Assembly: GCA_964630405.1 (NCBI GenBank)
Contig: CAZVUC010000092.1
Location: 7,174-71,173 of the forward strand
DNA length: 64,000 nucleotides
Direction of reading: 5' to 3'
Source of the DNA: an uncultured Syntrophobacterales bacterium
Lineage (GTDB): Bacteria; Desulfobacterota; Binatia; UBA9968; JAJDTQ01
Shown here: positions 4,784 through 44,430 of the stretch, in pieces
Position numbering within the stretch: the first letter of the stretch is position 1
Layout: the number at the start of each line of letters is the position of its first letter
Notes under the pieces: model-generated
Databases searched by the model: none
Told to the model about the DNA's origin: nothing
What the model saw: the letters and a program-made list of their open reading frames with translations, nothing else
Made by a program: the position numbers and the translations under genes

Positions 4784-4917
4784 GAAAGTAATTTGCCCTC
4801 GCTGACAACAGTCCGCAAGCACAGCTGCCCATTTTGAGGACGATACGAACAGGCCCGGTGCTGCGCAGCGGTGGACCTAGTCGTTAAGGAAACCGCGAGG
4901 GTGTTGGGTCGTAGAGG

Positions 4918-7695
4918 TCAGGAGCGCTCGATTTGTACGTGTTCGATCATACCGAGGTCGGTCAGGATCTGTCGGAGTTCCGTCTCGAAGTTGTTGGCCA
5001 GAGCCGCGTCGACCGTCACTGAACACTCAACTGTCACGTCGAGGTTTTCTCCGGACCTAAGTTTAGGCAAGAGTTTGGTCCCGAGCCGGTTCCAGAGTCC
5101 AGGAGGCACATTTCCAACCAGCCGAAGTAACGTTTCCTTTCCTGCCGACGCCGAACCTTCAGCGGAAGGCGTGCCCGGACTCGGTTCAAGCACGAAGCCT
5201 GACCCCGATTCTTGGCCTGACGTGGGCGCTGGTTGAGGCGGCGGCAAAGTTCCGGTTGCCCGGAGTTGCTCGGCCTTGGCTTTCGTCAGGAGAAAGACAT
5301 CGGCCTCGAACGCCACCTCCTCCGCGTACACCGGCTCTTTGTACCATACCCGCTCATATTGACCGCCGCCCTTGTCGCCGGAGGCGAGACCGAAGTCTCC
5401 GCGACCGACGAAATCCACAACGCGCCCGCGAAGAACCATGTCCGGATCCATCAGGCGTGTCAAAGCGCCGTTCAGAAAACTCTGCCGCAGACTCGTCAAC
5501 GGCCATGCCCCGATGTCCTTGAAAGCCGGCGGCCAATGACGGTCAATGTATCCTGCGCCGACGGTCTCATTCAGCAAGGCCCCTGACTTCAACGCTGCGA
5601 CGATGCGTCCGCACAATGTTTCACTGGCACTGGCGTGGCCCGCTCCGAGGTCAATGATCTTGAGGCCGTGCTTGGCCTGTGCATCCCCGAGCGCCACGAA
5701 GCGATAGCCGGCCCACACCTCGTCCTTGGCAGCTTCTTCTGCGTCCCGTACATGCGCCTGAATCTCGGAGCGGTCCGCCCGCTCGAATTCCGTGCCCAGG
5801 ACTCCTTCGGTCACTTCGCGCGCCACGCGTTTCCAGGCAAGCCAGATTTCGACCTTGTCGAGGAGCTCCCTACCCGGCTTTCTCGCACACCAGACGAGGG
5901 CGCCCGGGTACAGCCGTGGCGAATTGCCACGTTCCCTGGTCCAACGGCTAACACGTTCCACGGCTTGACCACCCTCACTCCACTCCTCCACCGGGTCCAG
6001 GACAACCAGGGTCAGGCGGGGTGAATCCTGCACCGCATCGCCGTTCTCCGGGAAGAAGCCGACTGGAATCGTTGCGCCGCGCGCGAATTCACTCTCTACA
6101 AGCCTCCGGACCGCAGGTCTGGTTTCTGTCTCCTCGTCTAGCGAAGCTCGCCGGTCGCTGACCACCTTTCGCAGAGTTGCCTGATGATGAATACGATAGC
6201 CGTCCGTGCCGATCTTACGGACAAAGAAACCCGACTTCTCCAGAGCCGAGGCCGCGTTGTCGACCGTGGTCGTCTCCACCTCGGGCTCGCCAAGAGCAAA
6301 CCGCAATTCCGGCAAGTGTGCGACCTTGTCCACTTGGCCCCCCGAGGACTCGAACAAGACGGCGGTACCCACGCGGCAGTGAATGTCGCGCAAGGCCCCT
6401 TTTGCATCCGTATCCAGAGCCTTGGCGTGAGCCATGGGACCCGCTACATCGGCGTCGATGGCCACATCGAGCCGCGACTCGCCGAGTTGGCCGAGCACCA
6501 CGGCACGGAACTCGGGAACCTGAAGGGGTGCGGACCCCAACGTGATCAGGGGCTCTGTCCGAGCCTTCTGGAACTGCTCGCGCGCCGCCCAGGAAATCCA
6601 TTGCGCCAGCATTGCAAGGGCACCCCGAGTTTGCTGAAACTGAGGGAGCGCGCGCCACTTACGCTGAAAGACGGACAATGTCGCCGGGTGAAAAGGATAG
6701 CAAGCCTCGAAACGACCCCTCAAAAACTCTCTTGCCTTTGTCTCGGTAGTAGCGGTGTCCACAGCCAGCCATTCCGAGGGAAGCCGCGCAGTCCGCTCGA
6801 AACACCAGTCCGCATAGGTTTTCGCCACCCTCTGACGCACCCGCAACTTGCCAAGGTCCTCAAACAGCCGTCGTCGCACGACCTCGCTGATCTCAGACTC
6901 GTCGTTGGCGATGAGATCGCGGGCGACACGGCGCACAACCTTGGTGATCCGTTCCTGCCACTCCTGGTCCCAATTGGTCATCTCAACCTGACTACGGGGA
7001 AGGCTGATGACTGCGGCCGTCTGCGCCACACCGGTAACCGCCACAGTCAAGTTCTGGAGGAACGCGTGAAAGGACTCCGCCATGTCGCGGTGACGGTTCA
7101 CGAAGTTCAACACTTCATCAAACAACAGAAGCACCGGGCCACCCGCAGCAGAAAATACCCTGACCAATGCATCGGTTCCCGGCGGTGTGGTCCGTGCGGC
7201 GTCACCCAACACCGCTACACCCTTGTCCCCGGCCAACTGACGAGCCAAATCGATCCAAGGCGTCTCCCGTCCCTCGGCGGGGTCCCAAGCGTTGCCAACG
7301 AACACCCCGACTTGGGCGGAGGGTGTCTCGCCTATGCTTGCCTCCTTCAGGAGGTCAGCGACACCGGCAAATTTGTTGGCACGTGCGCCGGCTTTAGCCA
7401 GGTGGTAGAGCGACGTCAGGGTGTGAGTCTTACCGCCACCGAACTGGGTGATGAGCGTCAAGACCGGTGAGGTGTTCTCCGTCTTGCCGGATAGGCGACG
7501 CAGCACCATGCCCGCATGCTCCCACAACGCGCGAGTGAAGTAGGTGCGCGCGAAGAACTGTACCGGATCGCTATAGTCCTCAGGGGCAGATCCTGCCACC
7601 ACCTGCTCCAGGGCGATGGCGAACTCGTCCGGACTGAACGAACGGCCTTCGCGTACCTCCTTGCGGAGCGTCACAACCTTGTACCACGGATCCAC
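4918..7695 (-). CDS. DUF499-family P-loop ATPase (BrxC-like) of the helicase/methylase/ATPase defence triad
   Basis: 925 aa. Walker-A-like 'ITQFGGGKTHTL' near the N-terminus, Walker-B-like 'LLLFDEV', long alpha-helical C-terminal region. Last gene of the operon, 6 bp after the toxin gene. Confidence 0.7.
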   Translation of the reverse strand: MDPWYKVVTLRKEVREGRSFSPDEFAIALEQVVAGSAPEDYSDPVQFFARTYFTRALWEHAGMVLRRLSGKTENTSPVLTLITQFGGGKTHTLTSLYHLAKAGARANKFAGVADLLKEASIGETPSAQVGVFVGNAWDPAEGRETPWIDLARQLAGDKGVAVLGDAARTTPPGTDALVRVFSAAGGPVLLLFDEVLNFVNRHRDMAESFHAFLQNLTVAVTGVAQTAAVISLPRSQVEMTNWDQEWQERITKVVRRVARDLIANDESEISEVVRRRLFEDLGKLRVRQRVAKTYADWCFERTARLPSEWLAVDTATTETKAREFLRGRFEACYPFHPATLSVFQRKWRALPQFQQTRGALAMLAQWISWAAREQFQKARTEPLITLGSAPLQVPEFRAVVLGQLGESRLDVAIDADVAGPMAHAKALDTDAKGALRDIHCRVGTAVLFESSGGQVDKVAHLPELRFALGEPEVETTTVDNAASALEKSGFFVRKIGTDGYRIHHQATLRKVVSDRRASLDEETETRPAVRRLVESEFARGATIPVGFFPENGDAVQDSPRLTLVVLDPVEEWSEGGQAVERVSRWTRERGNSPRLYPGALVWCARKPGRELLDKVEIWLAWKRVAREVTEGVLGTEFERADRSEIQAHVRDAEEAAKDEVWAGYRFVALGDAQAKHGLKIIDLGAGHASASETLCGRIVAALKSGALLNETVGAGYIDRHWPPAFKDIGAWPLTSLRQSFLNGALTRLMDPDMVLRGRVVDFVGRGDFGLASGDKGGGQYERVWYKEPVYAEEVAFEADVFLLTKAKAEQLRATGTLPPPQPAPTSGQESGSGFVLEPSPGTPSAEGSASAGKETLLRLVGNVPPGLWNRLGTKLLPKLRSGENLDVTVECSVTVDAALANNFETELRQILTDLGMIEHVQIERS

Positions 7696-7701
7696 TAGCC
7701 T

Positions 7702-8067
7702 TCACCTCGCTGGCCGCGTGTCGCAGAACGTATCCGAACGTGTGGGGGTCACCACAATCAAGGCGTCTTCCTCTATTGCATTTGCATGCCGACCGATAAG
7801 CTCATCCATGGCGACCACCTTCTCCGCCACTCGCATGTCGACGAAGCGAATGATGCATGGGTGTGGCATGCGACGCACGAAGACCAACTCACCGAAGTCC
7901 TTGTCCTCGGTTATGAGTACTCGTCCCTCTCGATTTGCCCGCGCGAGCAGCACTTCATCCGTGGCATAGGGGTCTACGTCCAACGCGGAGACGACATCGT
8001 GCCCCAAGTCCGCCAACATGCTGCACAAACTGCGGGATGCGGCACAGACATCGAGGAGAAATTTCAA
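7702..8067 (-). CDS. DUF5615-family PIN-like (Mut7-C-like) putative toxin
   Basis: 'MKFLLDVCAAS...VLITEDKDFGEL' resembles DUF5615. TTG start overlaps the DUF433 stop by 4 nt (TTGA). Confidence 0.6.
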   Translation of the reverse strand: MKFLLDVCAASRSLCSMLADLGHDVVSALDVDPYATDEVLLARANREGRVLITEDKDFGELVFVRRMPHPCIIRFVDMRVAEKVVAMDELIGRHANAIEEDALIVVTPTRSDTFCDTRPAR

Positions 8068-8318
8068 GGCGTTGTCCGGACAGGCATTCGCTCATGCACA
8101 TGCTCGCCTGCCATTGCGCGGTGGGCAAAAAGCAGACACGCCTGGATGTCTTCAGCCTCCAACACCGGGTATTCCTGGAGTATCCCCTCTGCCGTATCCC
8201 CTGCCGCAAGCATTCCCAGGATGTGCTCCACCGCGATGCGCATGTCGCGAATGATGGGTTTGCCGCCAAAAACGTCCGCGCGCACGGTAACGCGCTTGAG
8301 TAGCTCGGTTTCAGTCAT
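8064..8318 (-). CDS. DUF433-domain putative antitoxin
   Basis: 'VFGGKPIIRDMRIAVEHILGMLAAGDTAEGILQEYP' matches the DUF433 core. GGAGG Shine-Dalgarno 8 nt upstream. Translationally coupled to the DUF5615 gene. Confidence 0.6.
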   Translation of the reverse strand: MTETELLKRVTVRADVFGGKPIIRDMRIAVEHILGMLAAGDTAEGILQEYPVLEAEDIQACLLFAHRAMAGEHVHERMPVRTTP

Positions 8319-8385
8319 GATGGGTGCCTCCGCGGGCCATCGCTCTAGACTCTACACTACAAGTCGCGATGCAATCCTCGCATGC

Positions 8386-11300
8386 TTACCTCGGTACCGC
8401 CAGCAACATGGCATCCAACAGCCGTTTCTCGTCGCTGCCACGAGGATACAGGGCGGAAAGAGCGTTTGATAGACGCAGGAACTCCTGGCCCCGCTCCTGC
8501 TCGGCCTTCAACAAGGCGCGTAGCGCATTGCTACGACCACTGGCTTGGAGCAGCATGCCGGTGTGGACCCGGTCCAAGGTTGTGGCTCCAAGAGCCTTGG
8601 CGTCGTGCCTGTCGGATACGTCGCCATATTGTGCCGCCGGCTCGCTTACCACGAAACTCTTACCTTCCTGTTGGTCGGGGAAAAGCACTCCCTGAAACGA
8701 TTTCGCGGCAGTCGAACCCTCTTGTTCCAACCACCCGGCTACAACCTCTGCCCCCTGCTCTCCGAAAAGTTGCTTTGCCCGCTCAGTGACGGGCAGCAAC
8801 CGGACCACGCCCTTCTTGGTCTCAATGGTGCGTTTCTCCCACTTGGGCAGATCGATGCCAAGGGGCTGCGCAAAGCGGCGCACGACATCGAAAACCAAGG
8901 AGAAGCCTTTGGCCTTGCCGCTAGGTACTTCTTCGCCATCGGAATCATCGGCCGAAGCACCCTCACCGCTTCCGGTATCCTGCTCAGGCGTCTCCCCGCC
9001 CGTGGTTGCCTGGAGCGTCCACAGGAACAGCGCGGTTAGACGTGCGTCTTCTTCCAGTGCGCCGACCAAACCGTTGCGTGCTTGTGCTTCTGTGCTGCCG
9101 AGCACCTGCTCAAGAGCTGCGCGGCCAACAACCTCCCACACTTTCTCCAGGTACTCGGCAAGTTGAACTTCGTGCCCCTCCGCGGTCTCCACTGATCGAT
9201 AGCGGCTGAAAAGCTCTAGTGCTGGACCAACACAAGCAAACACCAAATCGGCGCCACGAATGCCCTCGTTCTGCAACCGCTCCATCCAATCGGCAACACG
9301 GCCGGGAAGTTCGTTCAAAACATCCCCCCAGTCGCCAACCGGCGCGTCATCCAAACGAGGGCGGCATATGAGATGTACGCTTGTCGCGAGGGCCGCGGAG
9401 TCTTGAGCACGCAGGCGAGCGCCCCTTTCCGTCGCAACCGGCCAAGAACCGGTAATTGTCCATCCGCCCCGGATTATGCCGGACAGAAGTGCCTCCCACC
9501 CTTCGGTAGTCTTGTGTGCAAATACGACGGATCCAATCCCATCCTCGTGCAGCACTCGTCGGCCCTCTGCGAAGGCCCTCGCCATGGTTTCCTCGAACCA
9601 CTGACGGTCCTTCGGCACACCGTCGGCCTGTTTGGATTCGTCCTGTACCGCTTCAGCACCCTTGGGTGAGAGTGAGTTCCGCGAATCGAACGGATCCCGC
9701 AACAACGAATGGTTCGGCAAAGCCCGCTTCAGCCACACGAGAAAGAAATCAGATAGGTCAGCATAGGGAACTGCGTCGTAGTAAGGTGGATCAGTAAACC
9801 AGATTGCAGCCGATTTGTGGGGTAGCGGATGGTCTGTGGCGTCGACTTGCTGTACTTGGGCAGTGGTTTGAGAGATATGGCTAATGGTCTCAACAGCGCT
9901 GTAGACGCTAGCGAAACCCGCACCGAATGCACCAGATGAATCCCCCAACGGAATCGGTTCCACGAAATCCCAGGTCATTGGGATGGCCTGACGACCGAAC
10001 GTGCACGTCGTCTTCTCGAAGGTCAAGTGCCACTTGGTTCCTGAACTGCCATAGTCCGCGCGTTTGCCGACCCCACAGGACAACGTGTCAACCAACTGTC
10101 CGTACAGTTCGTCCCCTGAGACCCGCATGGAGGCGATCGCACCAGTCAGTGCTATCAGCGCTAGTTTCTGTCGCGCCGTAAACAGGTCGCTCCACTCTCG
10201 CATACCGTATCGCTGAACGCGAAATCCCAGTGTGCCAATCGGTGGCAATGGTTCATCGGGCACGGGACAAAGGCCTTGTTGGCCGCTGCGTTCCCACGCT
10301 TGAAGCATCCCGGTCAGCACAGTCTGTGCGCGACGCACTGCTACGTAGTCCTTGGCCGTCGGTAAACGATAGTGGCGTCCCTTCTTGCCCGCCTTTACGA
10401 TGACGACCGCTAGTAATCTAGCCCCCGCGACACGTCGACCTTTCTCGTCAAATACTACATCTGCACCTCCTCGCTGCCCGGAAAGTTGAATCGGCACACG
10501 TGGATTATTCTTGGTCCCCGGCAGTACAGTTCCGCAGCATGGACAAATCACGTTGGCGTTGTTTCCCTTCGCCTTCGTCCCCGTGAGTTCAACAAACCCA
10601 GTCTTGCTATTCTCACTACCCTCGCCTCGCGCTATTCGAAAAGCAACCGGCCCACCCTTCGGCTTCTCACTGATCAACATTGCTCGGCAATTCCCGTGAG
10701 CCGTTTCCCTAAAAAACCGCGCTCTTGTCGCCCCCTTCTTGGATAGCCAAGGAGACCTGTAAATCGGAATCTCGGCGCCACAATTCGGAGCTTCGCACTG
10801 AACCGTACGCGCCCACAAATACGCGATCGGAACTCCCCCGTCGTCATCCTTGGGGTAGAGATCTACTAGTTCCCTCTCCGCCTGCCGAATAATCGCTCCG
10901 CCCGCGCTGCGCAGTTCCTCAATGTTCCTAGGTCCGTGGCGCGGTATGTCGTCCAGCATAACCTTGAGAATCAGGCACGCCACCGGGTTTAGATCACTGG
11001 CAAACGCCTCGCAGTCGAGGCGTAGCGCCTCCAAGGGAATCGAACCACCACCCGCAAACGGGTCCACCACAAGAGGGGGCTCATCACCATGCGCCGCCTT
11101 CACTAGGTTCCTCCCAACCCGCAGGTAAGTTGTATTGTCCGCCATATCCCAGTTGGCGAACGAACCGATGAACCAAAGCAATGCCTTGCGCAACTCCTCG
11201 TCGCCCATCGGCGGCTGCCGAACCTCACTGAGGATCTCCCGTGCCTGCTGCTTGAACGGTTCCGGACAGTGCTCGTCGCAAGGGTCCGGCAGTAACAACG

Positions 11301-11544
11301 CCAACAGCACGGCGCGGCTCGAAGCCAACGGCCTTCGCGCCCACCACAGATGCAGCGTCGACGGATGCCCGTGTCGAATCGATTTCTCACGCGCCGCATG
11401 CCGGGATACTTCGGCCACCGGGAAATCAACCTCTGCGAGCCGTTTACATTCCTTGGGGATCATTGAGTTACCATATAAGTTTCGTGCGTCGGTTTCGGCG
11501 CTGTCTATAGCACTACGCGTCAACCGAGTACGCACACTCTTCAT
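8386..11544 (-). CDS. DUF1156-family N6-adenine (or N4-cytosine) DNA methyltransferase of the defence triad
   Basis: N-terminal DUF1156 signature 'VDFPVAEVSRHAAREKSIRHGHPSTLHLWWARRPLASSRAV'. 'DPFAGGGS' SAM-binding motif I. Catalytic motif IV 'DPPYYD'. Cys cluster 'CEAPNCG...ICPCCG' suggests an inserted zinc ribbon. Confidence 0.75.
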   Translation of the reverse strand: MKSVRTRLTRSAIDSAETDARNLYGNSMIPKECKRLAEVDFPVAEVSRHAAREKSIRHGHPSTLHLWWARRPLASSRAVLLALLLPDPCDEHCPEPFKQQAREILSEVRQPPMGDEELRKALLWFIGSFANWDMADNTTYLRVGRNLVKAAHGDEPPLVVDPFAGGGSIPLEALRLDCEAFASDLNPVACLILKVMLDDIPRHGPRNIEELRSAGGAIIRQAERELVDLYPKDDDGGVPIAYLWARTVQCEAPNCGAEIPIYRSPWLSKKGATRARFFRETAHGNCRAMLISEKPKGGPVAFRIARGEGSENSKTGFVELTGTKAKGNNANVICPCCGTVLPGTKNNPRVPIQLSGQRGGADVVFDEKGRRVAGARLLAVVIVKAGKKGRHYRLPTAKDYVAVRRAQTVLTGMLQAWERSGQQGLCPVPDEPLPPIGTLGFRVQRYGMREWSDLFTARQKLALIALTGAIASMRVSGDELYGQLVDTLSCGVGKRADYGSSGTKWHLTFEKTTCTFGRQAIPMTWDFVEPIPLGDSSGAFGAGFASVYSAVETISHISQTTAQVQQVDATDHPLPHKSAAIWFTDPPYYDAVPYADLSDFFLVWLKRALPNHSLLRDPFDSRNSLSPKGAEAVQDESKQADGVPKDRQWFEETMARAFAEGRRVLHEDGIGSVVFAHKTTEGWEALLSGIIRGGWTITGSWPVATERGARLRAQDSAALATSVHLICRPRLDDAPVGDWGDVLNELPGRVADWMERLQNEGIRGADLVFACVGPALELFSRYRSVETAEGHEVQLAEYLEKVWEVVGRAALEQVLGSTEAQARNGLVGALEEDARLTALFLWTLQATTGGETPEQDTGSGEGASADDSDGEEVPSGKAKGFSLVFDVVRRFAQPLGIDLPKWEKRTIETKKGVVRLLPVTERAKQLFGEQGAEVVAGWLEQEGSTAAKSFQGVLFPDQQEGKSFVVSEPAAQYGDVSDRHDAKALGATTLDRVHTGMLLQASGRSNALRALLKAEQERGQEFLRLSNALSALYPRGSDEKRLLDAMLLAVPR

Positions 11545-11557
11545 TGCACTCCTTCAT

Positions 11558-13675
11558 TCACGCCGTCTTACCCCAGCGGTGCTGGACGTACTTGACGGTT
11601 TCGTCGACGGGAAGCGGCCTGGTCCCGTTGCCAGTCCGGAGGTAGAAGACCGCAGATTTCTTCTCATCCACGTAGATCGGATGGTCGCTTCGTTCGACGG
11701 TGATTTGGCAGACTTCGTGACCGTCGATTTCGTGAAAGGTGACAGTCAAGTATGGCGATGATCCCGCACCAAGATCTCGTGCCACGAGGTCTTGAAAGTG
11801 AAGTTCAAAACCATCACGATCTTTCTTGCGCAGTGTGGCATAGTCAGCCTCAATTCCTACCGCCGTTCCAGCATCGTCAACACCGAGAAGAAGAATGCCA
11901 CCGTCACCGTTCAGGAATCCAGCCAACGTCTTGATGACTACTTCTTCAAGTTCCTTGTTGACCCGTTTTTCGCGACGGTCCCAGCGTAAACTCGACTTGA
12001 ACTCCAACGTCTGGCTTTCGCCACCAGACATCAGACCACGGACAGTTTGTTCGTCCGTTCCGTCTGTCGTATCGTCCGGAAGCCAACCTGCTACGAATTC
12101 GTTCATCTCCTCCGCCAACAAACGCCTGCGGGCGCCCAAAAAATCGGTGTAGTTCTCGGGCCGCCAGAGTTCGCGGTCCATCGGCACCGCCTGAGTTCGC
12201 AGTGCGCCGGGCTGGTTCTTCTCAACCTCAGGCAGATATTCAGACGGCGCGGAACGCCGTTCTTTTTTATCCGCCCGTTGCGTGAGAAAGGCTCGGTTGG
12301 CCAATTCGTTGGTCAGCTTGGAATCAACGTCGCCTTGAAGTTCAGCCTTCTTCAGTACGGATGGCGGGAAGATATGATGATTTTCCTGCCCATTGCTCTT
12401 CCCGGTGACCTTGTCGTAGAGCCGGATACCCGTAAACCAATCGCGTGCATCATGGGCGCGAGCGACCACCTGTGCAAGACGCGCCACCGCGGAGGTTATC
12501 CCAGCCCTGGCCAAATCCGAGGCCTCCAAGACGACACGACCCCGTTCGCGAAGGATTGCGGTCTCCAGTTCGTGGGTTGGATCGAGATCCTGTCCGGCAA
12601 CAAGAGCCACGTCCTGCTGAAGCTTGGTCTCCGCCGCACCCGAATAGCGCTGCCAAAGGCCTGCCAGGTAGAGCCAACGGATGAACCGATTCTTGACTAC
12701 GTCGGTCGGGAACCGTCCGTCATGCCGGGCCAAAAATACGGTGGCCGGCACAAGCACGTTGTTGGTGGGTAGCTCCCTAACATTATCGATAAAGGCTTCG
12801 TGGCGCAGCACGTACACCAAGTACTCAAACGCGACTTGCATATCCGTCCATGCGGCCTGCAACGTCGCAGCGGGCGTCCTAAGGAAAGAACCCTCCAATA
12901 GAACCGAACCGGTCGCCACACCGGCCAAGCAACGAACCAAAAAATTGAAATCCATACCGAAGCCGTGGCCCTCCATCTTCGTCTGGAAGTTGCGCAGTTC
13001 CTCCCGGGCTTCGGGCCAGATACTGCAGACGTGTGCGAGGGCGAGATCCGCATTGGTGAGCGGGGTGCCGGCCCTGTTGACCCTGTTGAAGATCTCGACG
13101 ACCTCATCGACGCCGAATTCATCTCCCGACACTTGGTCAACTGTGTAGGTATATCGGCGGACCTGATCAAGGAGGCTCAGGCGCTTCAGATTGTCCTGTA
13201 TGACCCTGCGCCGATCGTCATCGAGTTGGTCCAAACCTTCCAGGAGCTTGTCGAGACCTGCACTCAGGAACTCGTGAAGGCCGATCCATGCGGGATTCTT
13301 CTCCATCAACGACTTCTGCCAAAACCGAAACTCCTCTGTTTGCATGTTGAAGTATAGATCAAAAAAAAGTGCTTCGCCCTCGTAGAACTGAGGTGCCTCT
13401 CCTTTGAACAACACGTAAAGCGTTGTCAAACGCTGTTGTCCGTCGAGCAAAAGCAGCGAGTGACCGTCTTCGGCCGCTGTTCCGCCGCGTACCAACGACG
13501 GCTTGTAGGTCCGCCATATCAGCAAATGGCCGGTAGGATGCCGGCGGTATAAGGACTGCATGAGGCCGCGTACCTGTTCCTTCGTCCACACGTAACCGCG
13601 CTGGAATTCGGGCAACATGATCTCACCACGCCGCACCTGTCTCAGGAGTTCCTCAATCGACCTCACGTCATGCAT
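11558..13675 (-). CDS. GmrSD-like type IV (modification-dependent) restriction nuclease: DUF262 + DUF1524, fused to a C-terminal AlbA_2/Schlafen-like domain
   Basis: DUF262/ParB-like 'LPEFQRGYVW' and 'DGQQRLTTL'. DUF1524 His-Me finger 'GQENHHIFP'. C-terminal 'GESQTLEFKSS...LAGFLNGDGGILLLGVDDAGTAVGIE' is typical of AlbA_2. GAGGTGG Shine-Dalgarno before the ATG. Confidence 0.65.
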   Translation of the reverse strand: MHDVRSIEELLRQVRRGEIMLPEFQRGYVWTKEQVRGLMQSLYRRHPTGHLLIWRTYKPSLVRGGTAAEDGHSLLLLDGQQRLTTLYVLFKGEAPQFYEGEALFFDLYFNMQTEEFRFWQKSLMEKNPAWIGLHEFLSAGLDKLLEGLDQLDDDRRRVIQDNLKRLSLLDQVRRYTYTVDQVSGDEFGVDEVVEIFNRVNRAGTPLTNADLALAHVCSIWPEAREELRNFQTKMEGHGFGMDFNFLVRCLAGVATGSVLLEGSFLRTPAATLQAAWTDMQVAFEYLVYVLRHEAFIDNVRELPTNNVLVPATVFLARHDGRFPTDVVKNRFIRWLYLAGLWQRYSGAAETKLQQDVALVAGQDLDPTHELETAILRERGRVVLEASDLARAGITSAVARLAQVVARAHDARDWFTGIRLYDKVTGKSNGQENHHIFPPSVLKKAELQGDVDSKLTNELANRAFLTQRADKKERRSAPSEYLPEVEKNQPGALRTQAVPMDRELWRPENYTDFLGARRRLLAEEMNEFVAGWLPDDTTDGTDEQTVRGLMSGGESQTLEFKSSLRWDRREKRVNKELEEVVIKTLAGFLNGDGGILLLGVDDAGTAVGIEADYATLRKKDRDGFELHFQDLVARDLGAGSSPYLTVTFHEIDGHEVCQITVERSDHPIYVDEKKSAVFYLRTGNGTRPLPVDETVKYVQHRWGKTA

Positions 13676-13701
13676 GGCGCCACCTCAAAGTGATACCCCT
13701 T

Positions 13702-16700
13702 TCATACGTCACTGTGTTCCTCCATAGCCTTGGTTATGGCGCCCACCTGCAGCCAATAGTGCTGCACCTTCGTAACCTCATGCCACGGGAACCGAGCCGG
13801 GTTCCCAATGGGTTCCTGCAGTTGCGGTTGGTCCGCGCAGTTGGTCACGACGTAGAGCCAATAGCAGTCGGAGCGATCCTCGGCAACGCGGCGTTCGTTT
13901 GGCGTAAGCAGGATGTTGCCGGTGTTACCGGCAAGACCCTTGACCTCGATCAGACGCAACTCGCTTGAGTGCAGATCATGGCTGGTGACATCGTAGCCAA
14001 GGTTCTTCTGGTGGACGTCGTAGACCTGCCGGCCCTGGGCCGTTTCGTACTCCATGACCACCCGCATAGCGGTCATTTCGGTTTCGGGGTTCGGGCGCAG
14101 GCGGCGGACAACTGGTGTTTCACGGTCCGGGTTGGGCAGGACGAGTGCGCTCGCCAACCGCTCGACTCCTTGCAGCGTTACCGCCCGTTGTCTCTCGATT
14201 TCCTCATTGCGGCGTTGGCGTCGGCCCAGCACTTCGGCGTGACGGATTTCGGCTTGTGCCAAACGGCCTTCGGCGCCAGTGACGTCGTTCGCCACCTCTT
14301 CGGCAGCGCGACCGATTTCGTCGTCGATTCGCTGTAGAACCTCGGTCAAAGAGAGCTCTACGTGTTGGGCAATCCGGTCAACCTCCGCGAGCCGCTCAGA
14401 GCGTACCTCGTCGATAAACGGCGTCAGCGCGTGCTCGTTCAGCCAAGCAGTTGCTTCCGGGAGCGAGGCCACGGGCGGCAGAACGCTCGGTACATCGGTG
14501 GGCATTAGATTGCCGAGGAGTTCCATCCCCTGGATTTGAGGTGGCTGTTCGTCTCTCAACTCCACGGCAAAGAGCCTTTCGTGAATCACATGGCCCAACC
14601 CATCGACCACCTTTGCCTTGTAGAAATCGAGACGCGCCGGTTTTTCGTGGTCCAGGGAATGAAAACAGGCGCCCCTGGTGAAGACTTCCGACCCGAGGTC
14701 CAAACTGTTGCGCCGGAGGGCTTCGAACAGGGGGTGCCCCGGGGTCACCCATTCCAGGTTGTTCTGCTCCGCGGTGACGCGGTCTGTTGACAGTCGTGGA
14801 TAGCGAATCGCCAGATCCGGGAGGTTCCAGGAGGACTCGCGCTCATACTTCTTCAACCGCGACGGAGTGCGTCCCGGTTCGAACGTGTGAGCGATGCCGC
14901 TAACCGGTTTCAAGTCCAGCGCCGCGTCCCGAGCAGACTCGTTGATGAACCGCGCTATTGTCTCGGGTACAACCCGCCGTTCCCGCGCCTTGGCTCGTCG
15001 CTCGGTCAACATGTCCAGATTGAGCTTCTTGGAGGCCAGGCCTTCCAACGCCGTTTGACAGATGGCCCGGAAGTGGCCTTCGTCCACGTTCTTCAGGAGC
15101 CGTTCCTCAAGGTCAGCCTCGCCGAGTTTCTCGGCGTAGAAATCCCGCAGCACGGACTCCACGTGGGCCGACGGAAGGATCTCTCCCACGACGTTGAAGA
15201 CGGCATCGTCATCTAGGGCGTCGCGAATCTCCTGGAGCTTGTCCAAGAGGCGTTGGAGTACCCGGCCCTCAATCGTGTTGGTGGCGACGAAGTTGAAGAT
15301 GAGGCAGTCGAAACGCTGGCCGTAGCGATGGATCCGGCCCATCCGCTGCTCGAGCCTGTTGGGGTTCCAGGGAATGTCGTAGTTGAACAGGATGTGACAG
15401 CACTGGAGGTTGATGCCCTCGCCGGCTGCCTCGGTAGCCACCAGGATTTGGATGTGCCCTTCGCGAAACTGCTGTTCGGTGAATAACCGCGTTCCCGGTT
15501 CGTCGCGCGAGCCGGGCTTCATGCCGCCGTGAATGCATCCGACCCGGAAGCCCCACGACTTCAATTGGTCCATCAGGTAGTCGAGAGTGTCCTTGAACTC
15601 TGTGAAGATAAGCAGGCGCTGATCGGGATGATCGAAAAATCCCTGTTCCCTCATGATTTCCCGCAGCCGGCGTAGCTTTGCTTCATTGCCCGCGCCTTGC
15701 ACGGACTTGACTCGTTCAGAGAGTTCTCGGAGCTCACTGATTTCTTGGCGAACCTCATCTGCGTTGCCCGCCAGCGTGAACGCTTCAAGGATCCGCTCCA
15801 GGCGCTCGCGCTCGGCGTCTTCGAGCTCCTCCAGATCCTCCCAGTCAATGTCCGGCGGGGCCGTCCGTATAAGGTGCTCCGCTTTCTTGAGGCCTTCGTC
15901 CAGCCGCCTTGCCCGGTTGTCGAGCGAGCGTCGCATGGCATAGGTGCTGGAGGCGAGGCGTCGCTGATACAGCGACATGAGAAAACCGACCGCACGAGCC
16001 CTGGGGTCATCGCCTTGTGCAGCGGCCCGGGAGCTCTGGCGTTTAACGAATCGTGTGACCTCCCGGTACAGCTCGAACTCGGCGCCATCGGTAGTGAAGT
16101 CCACCGTGCGCGGGATGCGCTTGGTGAAAACCGGCTTGGCATTCCACTTTCCGTCTGCCTCTCGCTCTGGAAAGTAGACCATCGCTTCCTTGGTGCGCCT
16201 CAGGTAGAAGGGCGCTCGCCTCCGCTCCATGGCTTCGCGGATCGATTTGACGTCAGCGTAAGCGTCCCTATCGAGAAGCTGAAGAAACAGCGTAAAGTTC
16301 TGTGCATCGCCCTTGTGGGGTGTAGCGGTCAGTAAGAGTATGTGATCGGCACCGTCACGGAGCAGTTCCCCAAGCCGGTAGCGCAGGCTCTTGTGAGTCT
16401 CGTCTCGGGCCGACATGCGATGCGCCTCGTCCACTATTACAAGGTCCCAGTGCACTTGGCGAAGGCCCGGGAGGATATCCTGGCGCTTGGCCAGGTCGAG
16501 GGAGGTGATAATATGTTTCTGCTCGATCCACTGGTTGACGCCGAACTGGTCGCGGATGTCGCTGCCCTTGAAGACCAGGAACTTCTCGTCGAACTTTTCT
16601 TTTAGCTCGCGCTGCCACTGGAACGTCAGATTTGCTGGACAGACGATGAGAACCCGTTCGATAAGGCCCCGCAGCTTGAGTTCGCGGACCAGCAGGCCCG

Positions 16701-17112
16701 CCATGATGGTCTTGCCGGCGCCGGCATCGTCCGCCAGGAGAAACCGCACGCTGGGGAGTTTAAGGAGGTGTTCGTAGACCGCTTCGAGCTGATGCGGCAA
16801 CGGGTCAACGCGCGAGATAGAGAGTCCGAAGTATGGGTCGAACTCATAGGCTATGCCGAGGGAATAAGCCTGGAGGCCCAGACGCAGAAGGCGGCCATCT
16901 CGGTCGTAGGAAAAGGTGGAATCGGCAATTGTCAGATTGGATATCTGGTCGGCCGTCAGGGTAACCCGTCGGAATTGCTCCGTTTGTTGACCTACGAGGC
17001 CTGCTGTCCAAACGCCGGACCCATTGGGGCGGATGGTTTCCACCCGCATCGGCTCGCCAAAGAGCGGACCTGTGAGGATCTGTCCCTCCTTGATGGGTGC
17101 TTCGTTTGTCAT
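13702..17112 (-). CDS. SNF2/SF2 helicase with C-terminal DUF3883 (restriction-endonuclease-like) domain; first gene of the defence operon
   Basis: Helicase motif I 'DDAGAGKT', motif II 'DEAHR', motif III 'LLTATP', motif VI 'QRMGRIHRYGQ'. C-terminal 'IEVKG...LTPNERRVAEDRSDCYWLYVVTNC' is DUF3883-like. ATG at 17112 has a GGTGGAG Shine-Dalgarno; the raw ORF starts at a GTG at 17118. Confidence 0.75.
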   Translation of the reverse strand: MTNEAPIKEGQILTGPLFGEPMRVETIRPNGSGVWTAGLVGQQTEQFRRVTLTADQISNLTIADSTFSYDRDGRLLRLGLQAYSLGIAYEFDPYFGLSISRVDPLPHQLEAVYEHLLKLPSVRFLLADDAGAGKTIMAGLLVRELKLRGLIERVLIVCPANLTFQWQRELKEKFDEKFLVFKGSDIRDQFGVNQWIEQKHIITSLDLAKRQDILPGLRQVHWDLVIVDEAHRMSARDETHKSLRYRLGELLRDGADHILLLTATPHKGDAQNFTLFLQLLDRDAYADVKSIREAMERRRAPFYLRRTKEAMVYFPEREADGKWNAKPVFTKRIPRTVDFTTDGAEFELYREVTRFVKRQSSRAAAQGDDPRARAVGFLMSLYQRRLASSTYAMRRSLDNRARRLDEGLKKAEHLIRTAPPDIDWEDLEELEDAERERLERILEAFTLAGNADEVRQEISELRELSERVKSVQGAGNEAKLRRLREIMREQGFFDHPDQRLLIFTEFKDTLDYLMDQLKSWGFRVGCIHGGMKPGSRDEPGTRLFTEQQFREGHIQILVATEAAGEGINLQCCHILFNYDIPWNPNRLEQRMGRIHRYGQRFDCLIFNFVATNTIEGRVLQRLLDKLQEIRDALDDDAVFNVVGEILPSAHVESVLRDFYAEKLGEADLEERLLKNVDEGHFRAICQTALEGLASKKLNLDMLTERRAKARERRVVPETIARFINESARDAALDLKPVSGIAHTFEPGRTPSRLKKYERESSWNLPDLAIRYPRLSTDRVTAEQNNLEWVTPGHPLFEALRRNSLDLGSEVFTRGACFHSLDHEKPARLDFYKAKVVDGLGHVIHERLFAVELRDEQPPQIQGMELLGNLMPTDVPSVLPPVASLPEATAWLNEHALTPFIDEVRSERLAEVDRIAQHVELSLTEVLQRIDDEIGRAAEEVANDVTGAEGRLAQAEIRHAEVLGRRQRRNEEIERQRAVTLQGVERLASALVLPNPDRETPVVRRLRPNPETEMTAMRVVMEYETAQGRQVYDVHQKNLGYDVTSHDLHSSELRLIEVKGLAGNTGNILLTPNERRVAEDRSDCYWLYVVTNCADQPQLQEPIGNPARFPWHEVTKVQHYWLQVGAITKAMEEHSDV

Positions 17113-17305
17113 CTCCACCTACTCACCTGATGTACGAAGGATTTTGTTAAGTTTCTGTGGTTCGCTGTCTATGACATTGCCAAGGAAACCGCAAACGTAC
17201 GGCGGCATTGCGGCAGGCAAAGACGGTTGGAATTTGCCGTCAAAGATTGTTAGGTTAGCTTGAAAATCAAGCTATTCCAGTCCCGCCAGCGCAGGAGGTT
17301 TTGCC

Positions 17306-24870: not shown

Positions 24871-26322
24871 TCAAGCCTCGGCCCGCCTGGCGATCTCCCG
24901 CGCCAGCCCGTCGAAGATCCTGGCGTGGACCGGGTAAAGCCCGTACCAGTAAAGCAGGCCGCCCAGCCCCTTGGGAAGGAAAGCCGCGGTCTGCTCCAGC
25001 CGGGTCTTCCCGTCCTCCGTCTCCGACACCCGGAACTGGAGCCAGGCGCGGCCCGGCAGCTTCATCTCCGCCCTCAGGCGGACCAGCCGGCCCGGCTCCA
25101 GGGCCTCCACCCGCCAGAAATCCAGCGCGTCGCCGACGCGCAACTCGTCGGGGTGGCGGCGTCCCCGCCGCAGCCCCGCGCCCCCCAGCAGGCGGTCGAC
25201 CATGCCCCGAATCCGCCACATCCAGTCGCCGTAGAACCATCCCCGATCGCCGCCGATTCCGGTGAACACCCGGTACACCTCCCGGGCGGGCGCGTCCACC
25301 TGTCGTGTGCGGCGCTCGAAAATCATGCCTTCGTGGGACTCCACGCGGGAGAAGGAGTCGGCCACCGCGGGAGCGCCATGGGCGTCGCTCCAGGCGGTCT
25401 CGATGCGCCCGTGCTCCAGGTCCTCAATCACCTCCGCGATGGCCCCGGCGTAGTCCCGGGGCGAGATCGCCGGGAACAGCTCCCGGGCCAGATCGTCGGT
25501 CACCACCACCTCGTTCCGGAGCCCGTCGATGAGGGGACCGCTGACGCCGGAAGGGATCGGCGTGATCCAGTGCACCCAGTACGATGACAGGCGCGGCGTG
25601 AGCACCGGCACCGGCGCCAGCCAGCGCCCGAGGCCCCGGGCCCGGGCATAGCCCAGCATCATGCCCTTGTAGGTGGTGACCCCTTCGCCGCCGATCTCGA
25701 TGACCTTGTCGCCGCAGGCGGCGTTGGTCAAGGCCGCCGCCAGATAGTCCAGCACGTCGTTCACCGCGATGGGCTGGACCCGCGAATAGACCCATCGCGG
25801 GCACACCATCACCGGCAGACGTTCCACCAGGTAGCGGATCATCTCGAAGGAGATGCTGCCGGAGCCCACGATCACCGCCGCCCTGAACTCCGTCACCGGA
25901 ACGCCCCCTTCCCGGAGCGCACGACCCGTGTCCTGCCTGGAACGCAGATGTTGCGACAGGTCGGCCTCAGGGTTCCCGAGGCCGCCCAGGTAGACGATGC
26001 GCCGCACGCGGTTTTCTCGGGCCACCTGACCGAAGAGCCGCGCCGCCTCCACGTCCAGCTCGTGAAACCCGGCGCCGCTGGCCATGCTGTGGATCAGGTA
26101 GTAGGTGCAGTCCACCCCGGCCAGGGCCCGCGACAGCGTATCACGGTCCAGCGCGTCGCCCTCGACGATCTCGACCCGGTCCGCCCAGGATCGCGAGCGC
26201 ACCCGTGCCGCGCTGCGCGCGAGAACACGAACACGATGGCCGTCGGCGAGCAGACGCGGGGCCAGCCTGCCGCCGATGTAGCCGGTGGCGCCGGTGACGA
26301 GGACTGTTGCCGATGGGTTCAT
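24871..26322 (-). CDS. NAD(P)-binding SDR/NmrA-like protein with C-terminal DUF2867
   Basis: 'VLVTGATGYIGGRL' Rossmann motif. The C-terminal half ('WFYGDWMWRIRG') resembles DUF2867. Confidence 0.65.
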   Translation of the reverse strand: MNPSATVLVTGATGYIGGRLAPRLLADGHRVRVLARSAARVRSRSWADRVEIVEGDALDRDTLSRALAGVDCTYYLIHSMASGAGFHELDVEAARLFGQVARENRVRRIVYLGGLGNPEADLSQHLRSRQDTGRALREGGVPVTEFRAAVIVGSGSISFEMIRYLVERLPVMVCPRWVYSRVQPIAVNDVLDYLAAALTNAACGDKVIEIGGEGVTTYKGMMLGYARARGLGRWLAPVPVLTPRLSSYWVHWITPIPSGVSGPLIDGLRNEVVVTDDLARELFPAISPRDYAGAIAEVIEDLEHGRIETAWSDAHGAPAVADSFSRVESHEGMIFERRTRQVDAPAREVYRVFTGIGGDRGWFYGDWMWRIRGMVDRLLGGAGLRRGRRHPDELRVGDALDFWRVEALEPGRLVRLRAEMKLPGRAWLQFRVSETEDGKTRLEQTAAFLPKGLGGLLYWYGLYPVHARIFDGLAREIARRAEA

Positions 26323-26400
26323 GCTGGGGAAGGGCCGCCATGGCGCGGGCGATGACGCGCTACCAGCTTCCTGCTGCCGATCCTGCGATGATGACGCTCT

Positions 26401-26754
26401 TTATCTGTTCTCGGTCAGCCGCCCGGAAAGGTACTTGTGAATGATGCTCGACAACAGCGTCTGGTATGGGATTCCCTCCTCGCGCGCACGCGCGTGTGCG
26501 AGGTTGAAGTCGCGCTCGGTAACCCGCAAATTGACTCTCCGGGTCTTGTTGAACGTATTGCGGGCCGCGTGCCGGGCCGTCTCCATCTCACGCTGGGCTC
26601 CTGAAGCAGGCGTTAACTCGCCCCGATCGAAGCGTTCCAGTATCTCCCGTTCTTCGGCATTCAGTTGTTTCTTCACGGTGACCGTCTCCTCTAATGTGTG
26701 CAGTTTGTCAACACCTGGTGAGGGGCCGGGCGAGCGATCCGGCATCCTCGCCAC
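26401..26754 (-). CDS. BrnA/CopG-family (COG3514-like) antitoxin-like protein
   Basis: 'RVNLRVTERDFNLAHARAREEGIPYQTLLSSIIHKYLSG' is the typical BrnA C-terminal RHH region. Start codon uncertain. Confidence 0.5.
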   Translation of the reverse strand: MARMPDRSPGPSPGVDKLHTLEETVTVKKQLNAEEREILERFDRGELTPASGAQREMETARHAARNTFNKTRRVNLRVTERDFNLAHARAREEGIPYQTLLSSIIHKYLSGRLTENR

Positions 26755-26769
26755 ACGACAGATGGAACA

Positions 26770-26943
26770 TCAACGGCCTGACCGCCGTAAGCCAGCAAGC
26801 ACCTCGCGGAAACTGTTGAGGCCCGCTTCGAGGTTCTCGATGATCTCTTCGGCCAAGTCGTCGGGTTCGGGCAGGTTGTGCAGGTCGGTCAGGCTCTTGT
26901 CCTTGAGCCAGAAGATGTCGAGGCTGGTCATATGATTTCCCAT
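26770..26943 (-). CDS. small hypothetical protein upstream of BrnA-like gene (possible cognate partner)
   Basis: About 57 aa from 'MTSLDIFWLKDK...'. Occupies the toxin position but does not look like BrnT/DUF497. Confidence 0.3.
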   Translation of the reverse strand: MGNHMTSLDIFWLKDKSLTDLHNLPEPDDLAEEIIENLEAGLNSFREVLAGLRRSGR

Positions 26944-27092
26944 CGTCAAAGGCCGCAACACAGCCACAAACATTTTGTTTATTGCATTTGAAACCCTGCC
27001 TGGGATAGTATGCGGCCCTCACCGAAGGTATGCCCACGGCGAGGAGGGCTCGTCGCAGGCGAGGCTGTTGGGCGCCAAACAAGGAGGAGGAC

Positions 27093-27524
27093 ATGTCTTA
27101 TTCTGGAGGGTGCGACCACATACACAGTAGCTCGGACAACGATCCGATCGATGTCCACACCTGTCACTGCTCCGTCTGCAAACGCGTTACGGGACAAGCC
27201 ACGACCCATGTCGCGTTTTTCAATCACGGTGACATCGTCGTCGACAACCCCGGCGGCCTGAACCGCCAGCCGTTCAACGATCAGAACCCGGATGGTCCCC
27301 TGGAGCTCTGCACCTGCGCGGACTGCGGCACGCCCATCATGCTCGACGACAAGATGGGGCGCATTCGCGCCATCGCGCCGAACCTGATGGGCTTTGACCC
27401 GGACAGCATGCCGGCGACCTATCATGCCTTCTACGATCCGGCCACCGGCGTCCCGAGGCCGGACGACGGCCGCCCGGTCTATGAAGGGCTTCGCCCCGAC
27501 TTCGTCTGGCCTGAGGGATCCTGA
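27093..27524 (+). CDS. GFA (glutathione-dependent formaldehyde-activating / CENP-V) family protein
   Basis: 'CHCSVCKR' and 'CTCADCG' zinc-binding Cys motifs. AAGGAGGAGG Shine-Dalgarno before the ATG. Confidence 0.65.
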   Translation: MSYSGGCDHIHSSSDNDPIDVHTCHCSVCKRVTGQATTHVAFFNHGDIVVDNPGGLNRQPFNDQNPDGPLELCTCADCGTPIMLDDKMGRIRAIAPNLMGFDPDSMPATYHAFYDPATGVPRPDDGRPVYEGLRPDFVWPEGS

Positions 27525-27558
27525 GAAGAGGGGTCCCTTTCCACGACACCACAAACAA

Positions 27559-27592
27559 CAAGACCCCGAAGGGTTCTCCCCTCGGGGTCTTG
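27559..27592 (+). terminator. GC-rich stem-loop downstream of the GFA gene (possible intrinsic terminator, weak U-tract)
   Basis: CAAGACCCCGAAGG ... CCTCGGGGTCTTG inverted repeat with about a 13-bp stem. Confidence 0.35.
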
Positions 27593-27626
27593 TGTCAACT
27601 GGTGTCTGGATCGGCGCCCGGAGATA

Positions 27627-27640
27627 TGGCTCCCGGGGAG
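27627..27640. repeat. attR-like 14-bp direct repeat of the tRNA-Asn 3' end (TGGCTCCCGGGGAG)
   Basis: Identical 14-mer at 37821-37834 inside the tRNA-Asn gene. The integrase gene lies immediately inside. Confidence 0.55.
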
Positions 27641-27723
27641 TGCGCCGTCCCCGGTCCTCACCCAGTCTCAACCAGCCTCATAAGCATCCGATACTACTTA
27701 CTTTTCTTTCCGTCCCTTGTCTC

Positions 27724-27752
27724 TTGACGTCTCGCGAAGTTTCCTTTATTAT
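27724..27752 (+). promoter_or_regulatory. sigma70-like promoter for the integrase (TTGACG-N17-TATTAT), followed by operator-like repeats
   Basis: Consensus-like hexamers at 17-bp spacing in a locally AT-rich stretch. TTATCAC/GTGATAA inverted repeat at 27749-27769 and a second GTGATAAC at 27789-27796. Confidence 0.4.
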
Positions 27753-27814
27753 CACCAAAAAAGTGATAACCGAAGCAATATTCGGTTGGTGATAACTGGA
27801 AGGGAGACGAACCC

Positions 27815-29529: not shown

Positions 29530-29616
29530 GCAACTTCCCGTGGGTAAGGAAATCGGATTTGTTCATCACGACAGCGGTGGGCGCAGTGGGTATCTTGGGG
29601 GCGAAAGGAGGCTCCC

Positions 29617-31052: not shown

Positions 31053-31072
31053 GGGAAGGAAACTGAAACCGA

Positions 31073-31503: not shown

Positions 31504-31505
31504 CC

Positions 31506-31772: not shown

Positions 31773-31842
31773 CCCCCTCGGGGAGCCCTGAGACTGTTGC
31801 GTCGGGAGGGGCGTTACAACGCGGGGTGGAGACACGAAATCC

Positions 31843-37820: not shown

Positions 37821-37896
<76 letters not shown>

Positions 37897-44412: not shown

Positions 44413-44430
44413 ACCTCCGGGGACCGGGTC

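Follow-up and report, generated by a model that had tools for sequence, protein, structure and literature searches.

Within a 64,000-nucleotide (nt) stretch of DNA from an uncultured Syntrophobacterales bacterium (GenBank assembly GCA_964630405.1, contig CAZVUC010000092.1, positions 7,174 to 71,173), hereafter called the window, we analyzed a gene for a protein of 705 amino acids (aa) that resembles the GmrSD/BrxU family of modification-dependent restriction enzymes and is nested in an operon for an Hma defense system. The main point of interest is that two predicted nuclease heads and an NTPase are kept, apparently intact, on one polypeptide. The protein carries, in this order, a DUF262 domain, a helical linker, a probable His-Me finger and a C-terminal SLFN_AlbA_2 domain, and judging from the residues present, the catalytic motifs of all three enzymatic modules (NTPase, His-Me DNase and Schlafen nuclease) appear to be intact. 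We favor, with modest confidence, the reading that this is an autonomous anti-phage enzyme of the BrxU/GmrSD lineage with a Schlafen nuclease head, co-transcribed in a type-1 Hma operon as a second layer of defense.

Domain architecture of the 705-residue protein

The open reading frame (ORF) starts with ATG, preceded at 5 nt by a GAGGTG Shine-Dalgarno sequence, and it contains the motifs PEFQRGYVW (aa 22-30), DGQQR (aa 78-82) and ENHHIFP (aa 431-437), all three of them quoted in a first-pass annotation made by a model from the sequence alone; the ORF lies exactly where that annotation had placed it. We rejected the possibility of a pseudogene or chance ORF, given the intact full length, the Shine-Dalgarno site and the wealth of full-length homologs: more than 120 clusters (built at 90% identity) match the protein from end to end at 66-100% identity and carry the same two Pfam domains. 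These domains are GmrSD_N/DUF262 (PF03235; Table 1) and SLFN_AlbA_2 (PF04326, aa 553-688, E=3.3e-18); both matches lie far beyond the curated cutoffs and are therefore not due to chance. No NCBIfam model matches the protein.

The body of the protein resembles BrxU. The best PADLOC profile is that of HEC-05 (PDLC04151, 3.1e-42), which aligns aa 72-528 with profile positions 112-593 of 600 and thus stops before the Schlafen tail; a second profile, PDLC04150, matches at 9.7e-27. BrxU is also the best sequence match in the PDB (7p9k, 1.7e-13) and the top Foldseek match of the full-length AlphaFold2 (AF2) model (2e-10 over 627 columns), with DndI (9jfl) a much lower and weak match. The first-pass annotation had proposed a GmrSD/BrxU-type enzyme with a DUF262 NTPase and a His-Me finger, and this architecture holds. 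All 29 close homologs keep the DUF262 motifs FQR and DGQQR, and with few exceptions so do 112 representatives at 50% identity. The linker (approximately aa 208-407) is all-helical in the AF2 model, mostly at a predicted local distance difference test score (pLDDT) of 70-93; one criterion for GmrSD proteins is that 200-400 alpha-helical residues connect the two domains (Machnicka 2015).

The linker is followed in the AF2 model by a small beta-beta-alpha region (approximately aa 431-464), and this region holds the counterpart, HHIFP, of the DHIYP nuclease motif of BrxU and GmrSD. Among the 29 close homologs (66-85% identity), H433, F436 and N460 are invariant, and the pattern [HD]-H-[IVL]-F-P together with N460 is kept in Schlafen-bearing relatives, tail-less relatives and relatives with other tails across the 112 representatives. 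The ortholog from Sinorhizobium meliloti reads a canonical DHIFP at this position. PF07510, the Pfam model for DUF1524/GmrSD_C, matches 10 of the 29 homologs (best E=3e-5), while a scan of aa 378-535 of the 705-aa protein alone returns AHH (HNH/EndoVII clan) as its sole Pfam match, at 0.15. Based on the motif, its conservation and the fold match to BrxU, we conclude that the protein probably has a DUF1524-like His-Me finger, from a divergent sub-family at the edge of the Pfam model.

For the C-terminal tail, an AF2 model of aa 530-705 alone reached a pLDDT of 89 and a predicted TM-score of 0.85, and the C-terminus of the full-length model has a pLDDT of 80-93; the tail is thus confidently folded rather than disordered. 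When this model was used in a Foldseek search, the 32 best PDB matches were all of the Schlafen fold: Corynebacterium diphtheriae DIP2311, SLFN5/11/12/13/14, SAMD9 and a RecG-related N-domain. The sequence ESQTLEFK (aa 553-560) corresponds to the Schlafen Ex4ExK motif (E553-x4-E558-x-K560), and a HMMER alignment places E553, E558 and D601 on E205, E210 and D248 of rat SLFN13 (rSLFN13). In rSLFN13, changes of E205, E210 or D248 lower RNase activity, and E205A and E210A are wholly inactive. All 29 close homologs have E553, E558 and K560, and 26 of them have D601. Conservation extends much further: in a survey of the 150 best representatives at 50% identity, E-x4-E-[FYL]-K is retained in nearly all of the 63 members with a Schlafen tail, at overall identities of 27-54%. 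Because the structural matches are Schlafen-only and the catalytic triad E553/E558/D601 is present, the tail is probably a Schlafen-type nuclease head rather than an ATP-binding or DNA-binding add-on. The AlbA_2-like domain proposed by the first-pass annotation is therefore confirmed, both by PF04326 and by the Schlafen fold, whereas the nucleic-acid-binding or ATP-binding role that it suggested sits poorly with the Ex4ExK motif and D601. An assignment as an ATP-binding "divergent AAA" domain, after the old Pfam name AAA_4, was rejected, since fold and motifs are both of the Schlafen type.

One alternative deserves weighing here, namely that the tail is non-catalytic and serves as a nucleic-acid-binding or targeting module that places the His-Me finger on a certain DNA or RNA-DNA structure, which would make the protein a type IV enzyme with one nuclease and a reader domain. 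The AlbA_2 domain of SAMD9, among the best structural matches to the tail (TMq approximately 0.6, root-mean-square deviation 3.9 Å), was first solved as a DNA-binding domain (7ksp, TMq 0.61), but the same domain has now been deposited as a tRNase (9o0d). Other GmrSD relatives do bear C-terminal add-ons, including DNA-binding ones (listed in Machnicka 2015), and annotation as a regulator with HATPase_c_4 is common among bacterial AlbA_2 proteins; such genes lie near the GmrSD-Slfn gene in two of the loci that we surveyed (L022 and L023). Against a binding-only tail, the full Schlafen RNase triad is present and conserved across deep divergence, sister proteins carry a HEPN-like tail of RNase type in the same slot, and mutation of Ex4(E/D)xK in published bacterial Schlafen cases abolishes defense. 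We therefore consider a binding-only tail unlikely.

Exchangeable tails and genomic contexts

The survey of 150 representatives indicates that the tail varies on a common core. Besides the 63 proteins with a Schlafen tail, approximately 40 have none (505-600 aa, ending after the His-Me finger) and 30 have another one. A cluster of five (P0163, P0169, P0222, P0226 and P0255) and two similar singletons (P0203 and P0175) share a C-terminal region of 150-190 aa with an invariant RNxxxH at the same position, which corresponds to the Rx4-6H signature of HEPN domains; from this signature and from Pfam matches below threshold, we weakly assign these tails as HEPN-like. That a second fold of RNase type, unrelated to Schlafen, would occupy this position gives independent comparative support to a role of the tail as an RNase effector. 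In 17 proteins (e.g., P0193, P0186, P0206, P0211 and P0225), the His-Me finger is followed by an unannotated domain of approximately 85 aa with the signature "AWPEGLQ ... GY.FFT", sometimes with 100-330 further residues behind it (DUF5655 in P0225); in P0161, a Schlafen domain comes after the AWPEGLQ domain.

The family has many members in a wide range of hosts. In an exhaustive search, 13,933 proteins resembling GmrSD were returned at E<=1e-3, of which 849 reached E<=1e-30. Its hosts are both bacteria and archaea, and include Acidobacteriota, Gemmatimonadota, Chloroflexota, Spirochaetia, Bipolaricaulota and Coriobacteriia. Among cultured organisms, all four modules are found in each of the proteins from S. 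meliloti (pSymA), Haloquadratum walsbyi (plasmid PL100) and the halophilic archaeon DL31. A search of a phage collection gave only partial and distant GmrSD-like matches and no Schlafen-bearing homolog.

To describe the surroundings of the gene, we compared 21 loci. The GmrSD-Slfn gene lies between homologs of HmaA and HmaB in 13-14 of these, often together with other nested genes such as AAA_15/21 ATPases, MNT-HEPN, RHH-PIN, DUF433/DUF5615 and Slfn-HATPase_c_4 genes, and it stands alone among metabolic genes in five others (L006, L008, L009, L014 and L021). On the S. meliloti and Haloquadratum plasmids, the gene is also alone, with genes of restriction-modification type several kb away and no Hma genes. 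As both nested and standalone loci occur, the GmrSD-Slfn gene is an autonomous module that strongly prefers the gap between HmaA and HmaB, in line with the description of embedded systems by Payne et al. Its autonomy is supported by the at least seven genomes or plasmids in which it is found without any Hma gene; we also counted in favor of autonomous defense that EcoSlfn7, an Escherichia coli protein that joins DUF262 to a Schlafen domain, protects E. coli by itself.

These contexts also bear on whether the protein could be an integral subunit of the Hma variant at hand, serving for instance as restriction nuclease or to regulate HmaB. Such a role would fit the constant position between HmaA and HmaB in the nested loci, on the same strand and probably on the same transcript. 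However, HmaA already has a nuclease domain of its own (NOV_C), and a subunit would not be expected in the genomes and plasmids that lack Hma genes altogether. In addition, unrelated modules (AAA_15/21, MNT-HEPN, RHH-PIN and Slfn-HATPase) fill the same gap in other Hma loci, the GC content of the gene lies below that of the Hma genes, and publications on Hma regard genes of this kind as independent systems that are embedded in it. We consider a subunit role highly improbable.

Several of the compared loci have features of their own. A separate gene with Slfn_AlbA_2 and HATPase_c_4 lies beside or near the GmrSD-Slfn gene in L022 (11135-12829) and L023 (3986-5224), so that some Hma islands hold two Schlafen-domain proteins; the same two islands also contain MNT-HEPN, RHH-PIN, AAA_15/21 (OLD-like), SIR2_2 and DruA genes. 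Decayed copies were found in three loci: in L011, the gene is split into parts for aa 1-445 and aa 568-703 that lie 3.7 kb apart (10001-11335 and 15019-15432); in L015, only fragments are left; and in L020 (11147-12765), HmaB is reduced to 81 aa and has ISL3, IS66 and further transposases beside it. L002 (2775-3242 and 9382-9936) contains an extra Schlafen-like segment just upstream of HmaA, 37% identical to aa 548-701 of the query, as well as a duplicated C-terminal fragment of HmaA directly before the GmrSD-Slfn gene, which points to recombination scars where the gene was inserted. Upstream of the standalone copy in L003 (13-7580), three co-directional ORFs of 1267, 773 and 484 aa without a Pfam match are followed by a Uma2-family nuclease; this set of ORFs may be an uncharacterized defense system.

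The host operon and a proposed mechanism

In the window, six genes follow each other head to tail on the minus strand: HmaA, GmrSD-Slfn, HmaB, DUF433, DUF5615 and HmaC (Table 1). The first-pass annotation had placed the gene between a helicase and a methylase, and HmaA and HmaB indeed flank it on the same strand, at distances of 26 nt and 13 nt, respectively. HmaA contains SNF2-rel_dom, Helicase_C and NOV_C (PF13020, aa 1014-1101, 7.1e-22) along with the motifs GAGKT, DEAH and EVK, and its fusion of a helicase to a C-terminal PD-(D/E)XK nuclease is a type-1 Hma feature. HmaB is preceded by an AAGGAG Shine-Dalgarno sequence 5 nt upstream of its ATG, and HmaC lacks an N-terminal HEPN domain. The NCBIfam models for anti-phage DUF1156 and DUF499 proteins match below their strict cutoffs. 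Taken together, the operon is an Hma system with two nested modules, GmrSD-Slfn and DUF433/DUF5615. Hma was named by Payne et al., and has been renamed the type-1 DUF499-centered BREX-related (BR) system in a 2026 paper in Nucleic Acids Research (NAR).

Table 1. Features of the operon and the surrounding low-GC island in the window.
Feature	Position (nt)	Strand	Evidence
GmrSD/BrxU-like protein with C-terminal Schlafen domain, 705 aa	11558..13675	-	ORF and translation, Pfam, PADLOC, PDB, Foldseek
DUF262/ParB-like NTPase domain (aa 7-216); FQR aa 24-26, DGQQR aa 78-82 (nt 13430-13444)	13028..13657	-	PF03235 1.8e-30
Alpha-helical linker (aa 217-407), as in GmrSD/BrxU	12455..13027	-	AF2 secondary structure; alignment to BrxU residues 167-433
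His-Me finger (DUF1524-like) region (aa 408-530); HHIFP aa 433-437 (nt 12365-12379), N456, N460	12086..12454	-	motif, conservation, BrxU fold match
Schlafen/AlbA_2 nuclease-type domain (aa 540-701); Ex4ExK aa 553-560 (nt 11996-12019), D601	11573..12058	-	PF04326, AF2 fold, conservation
HmaA: SNF2 helicase with C-terminal NOV_C (PD-(D/E)XK-type) nuclease domain	13702..17118	-	PADLOC HmaA 1.4e-171
HmaB: DUF1156 amino-methyltransferase, FAGGG aa 163, DPPY aa 585	8386..11544	-	PADLOC HmaB 1.9e-103; Pfam DUF1156 3.6e-23
DUF433 small protein, first gene of second nested pair	8064..8318	-	PF04255 2.1e-21
DUF5615/PIN-like small protein, 4-nt overlap with DUF433 gene	7702..8067	-	PF18480 9e-18; PIN_10 2.9e-4; Mut7-C 1e-3
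HmaC: DUF499 AAA+ ATPase	4918..7695	-	PADLOC HmaC 9.4e-93; Pfam DUF499 4.1e-13
Low-GC island holding the whole operon	4800..17300	.	GC profile

A scan for promoters and terminators over 4-18.5 kb returned no more candidates than shuffled sequences did, giving no internal signals, and the GmrSD-Slfn gene probably shares a transcript with the Hma genes. The whole operon lies in an island with a GC content of 0.53-0.63, compared with 0.66-0.71 in the flanks. Per gene, GmrSD-Slfn is the lowest at 0.562, the Hma genes range from 0.58 to 0.61, and flanking genes have 0.67-0.68. At the borders of the island, no convincing att-like direct repeats, integrase or tRNA were found; the sole tRNA of the window is a tRNA-Asn at 37821-37896. 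GC content dips to 0.60-0.63 at two other places in the window (26000-32000 and 44000-46000), which could be acquired segments. The small-gene pair between HmaB and HmaC (7702-8318) looks like a toxin-antitoxin-type module; homologs of the pair recur in the related Hma loci L001, L012 and L013, and DUF433 alone in L002, L014 and L015.

On the reading that we favor, the operon would provide two layers of protection. HmaB would mark self DNA and the helicase-nuclease HmaA would attack unmarked DNA. By analogy with BrxU, the DUF262 NTPase and the linker would detect the DNA of invaders, and the likeliest target would be DNA whose modified cytosines let it escape discrimination based on methylation; with the NTPase coupled to the nucleases, the His-Me finger would then cut the sensed DNA. 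Should DNA restriction fail, the Schlafen head would cleave RNA, most likely tRNA, leading to a shut-down of translation. In other words, the enzyme would act as a back-up layer that is co-expressed with Hma. The analogy draws on the published behavior of BrxU, which cleaves DNA containing 5-methylcytosine (5mC), 5-hydroxymethylcytosine (5hmC) or glucosylated 5hmC in the presence of NTP and metal, ignores N6-methyladenine (N6mA), and cycles between dimer and monomer upon NTP binding.

This analogy also speaks to a question raised in the first-pass annotation, which noted that a modification-dependent nuclease sits next to a methylase and asked whether the resident methylation is shielded from the nuclease or whether the two activities exclude each other. 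By precedent, the two activities appear complementary: BrxU coexists with BREX systems that write N6mA, the DPPY and FAGGG motifs of HmaB are those of an amino-methyltransferase, and the GmrSD-Slfn gene also occurs without an adjacent methylase in several genomes. At this locus, HmaB and a nuclease that depends on cytosine modification would thus complement each other rather than conflict.

A more elaborate version of the mechanism can be put forward tentatively, and we rate its chances as well short of even. An NTP-gated switch between dimer and monomer would let a single sensing event, the recognition of invader DNA that is hypermodified or aberrant in another way, both pair two Schlafen tails into a tRNA-cutting clamp and fire the His-Me DNase, so that DNA restriction and translation shut-off are set off together, with the C-terminus serving as an exchangeable "RNase slot" that can hold a Schlafen, HEPN-like or "AWPEGLQ" domain. 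The family would then form a class of type IV restriction enzymes that act both as DNase and as RNase, a combination that has so far not been described in these terms.

A number of observations weigh against the favored reading. With regard to the body, the full-length AF2 model is poor over the DUF262 domain (pLDDT 30-40), so that the assignment of this domain rests on sequence. PF07510 is silent on the 705-aa protein, even when aa 378-535 are searched in isolation at E<=10; the Pfam scan thus bore out two of the domains named by the first-pass annotation, DUF262 and AlbA_2, but not DUF1524, for which indirect support comes from the motif, its conservation and the BrxU fold match. H434, which aligns with the catalytic H475 of BrxU, is a histidine in 22 of the 29 close homologs, H433 being the invariant one. 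For the alternative tails, all seven HEPN-like regions gave sub-threshold Pfam HEPN matches (Swt1-like 1.9e-4, SAV2148-like 2.4e-4 and Abi_2), and a PDB profile search with them returned nothing. Finally, EcoSlfn7, the sole validated DUF262-Slfn protein, is only distantly related. It has 589 aa, reads DGLQR instead of DGQQR, and lacks the HHIFP/DHIYP motif and a His-Me module in hidden Markov model (HMM) searches; in a BLASTP comparison with the 705-aa protein, only the DUF262 motif aligns (E=0.002). EcoSlfn7 acts on phages T7 and T3. T7 and T3 are not known to carry cytosine hypermodification, and the trigger therefore need not be modified DNA.

Some of these points would suit a different division of labor, in which the Schlafen RNase alone acts as effector, with the GmrSD-like body, including a nicking or vestigial His-Me finger, as the sensor of infection and its switch; the outcome would then be abortive infection, not restriction. 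EcoSlfn7 works without a recognizable His-Me finger, prokaryotic Schlafen (pSlfn) proteins have been described as a Schlafen effector fused to sensors, the DUF1524 domain of SspE merely nicks DNA, and the variability of H434 in some close homologs points the same way. The pattern of conservation speaks otherwise: the His-Me motif and N460 are equally conserved in Schlafen-bearing and tail-less relatives, and the latter have no other effector, so that DNase activity seems to be under selection with and without a Schlafen tail. We judge it improbable that the Schlafen domain acts alone.

If both heads are active, as the favored reading proposes, modification-dependent DNA restriction would be linked to Schlafen-type RNA cleavage, the mechanism that human SLFN11 and SAMD9 use against viruses, and the family would offer a tractable bacterial or archaeal model for how Schlafen nucleases are switched on. 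Nested defense genes are a current route to new immune modules, and a clean natural example is seen here, where a single Hma operon harbors two such modules. For annotation, thousands of entries now called "DUF262 domain-containing protein" could be described as BrxU-like with a Schlafen (or HEPN-like) tail.

Comparison with known systems

Among known systems, BrxU and HEC-05 give the best matches by sequence and fold. The nesting of GmrSD-like genes in Hma, in BREX and in type I restriction-modification systems has been published, and those within Hma form the HEC-05/HEC-06 class, in which HEC-05 (Hma-embedded candidate 05) is the BrxU class, 99.2% identical to BrxU and active (Payne 2024). 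These proteins and the 705-aa protein share a DUF262 NTPase with DGQQR, a long helical linker and a motif of the His-Me type (DHIYP in the former, HHIFP in the latter), and they share nesting in a methylation-based system, either BREX or Hma. BrxU has 587 aa and stops after the His-Me finger, whereas the 705-aa protein adds a Schlafen domain of approximately 165 aa; the two are 18% identical in a structural alignment, and RLFDS of BrxU is replaced by GLMQS. SspE and DndI, which sense phosphorothioate modification, follow the same plan of DUF262, linker and DUF1524, and PADLOC gives weak SspE matches. However, similarity to them is far below that to BrxU/HEC-05, they have no Schlafen tail, and no dnd or ssp genes lie near the gene in the window. 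The host operon itself corresponds to the published Hma/type-1 BR system, with HmaA (SNF2 and NOV_C), HmaB (DUF1156) and HmaC (DUF499) on one strand and nested genes in between.

As for the tail, eukaryotic Schlafen RNases (SLFN11/13/14) and the SAMD9 tRNase share its fold and its triad of E-x4-E-x-K plus an aspartate. The N-domains of eukaryotic Schlafens have two lobes that form a clamp, whereas the tail studied here is a single lobe of approximately 160 aa, and a clamp built from such tails would need dimerization. Eukaryotic Schlafens are, moreover, joined to a helicase, whereas the tail here is joined to a predicted DNase.

Fusions of DUF262 to Schlafen domains have been described as class pSlfn7 (DUF262.pSlfn), with 109 proteins and a defense-island score of 0.76, and a single member, EcoSlfn7 from E. 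coli UC4224, lowers the plating efficiency of T7 538-fold as a single gene (Perez Taboada et al., bioRxiv 2025; Nat Microbiol 2026). Like this class, the 705-aa protein combines an N-terminal GmrSD_N and a C-terminal SLFN_AlbA_2 with Ex4ExK in one polypeptide, and the class list includes proteins of approximately 712 aa, the size of the GmrSD-Slfn family. HMMs of the family's linker and His-Me region gave no convincing match to EcoSlfn7; outside the DUF262 and Slfn motifs, BLASTP and the module HMMs showed next to no similarity, and relatedness to it is so low that its function is not transferable by homology; membership in pSlfn7 nonetheless stands, as the class is defined by domain composition. 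The genomic settings differ as well, since EcoSlfn7 is encoded in a P2-like prophage and the 705-aa protein in an Hma operon. The EcoSlfn7 gene (L019, NZ_CP104472.1, 4519514-4521283) lies between the portal gene and DinI/replication genes of that prophage, and upstream of it, a small ORF with an internal stop carries a pseudogene annotation.

Our literature search found no paper that joins GmrSD or HNH with a Schlafen fusion: GmrSD and Schlafen are separate auxiliary effectors in the NAR 2026 survey, and the Schlafen paper by Perez Taboada et al. does not mention HNH or GmrS. The first-pass annotation rightly named an extra C-terminal AlbA_2 domain, but the apparent novelty is largely taken up by the published HEC-05/HEC-06 and pSlfn7 classes. 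The protein is a member of pSlfn7 by domain composition and a member of HEC-05 by profile and position. Both the nesting in Hma and the fusion of DUF262 to a Schlafen domain are thus already published, and it is the His-Me finger kept beside a Schlafen head that is the under-described variant.

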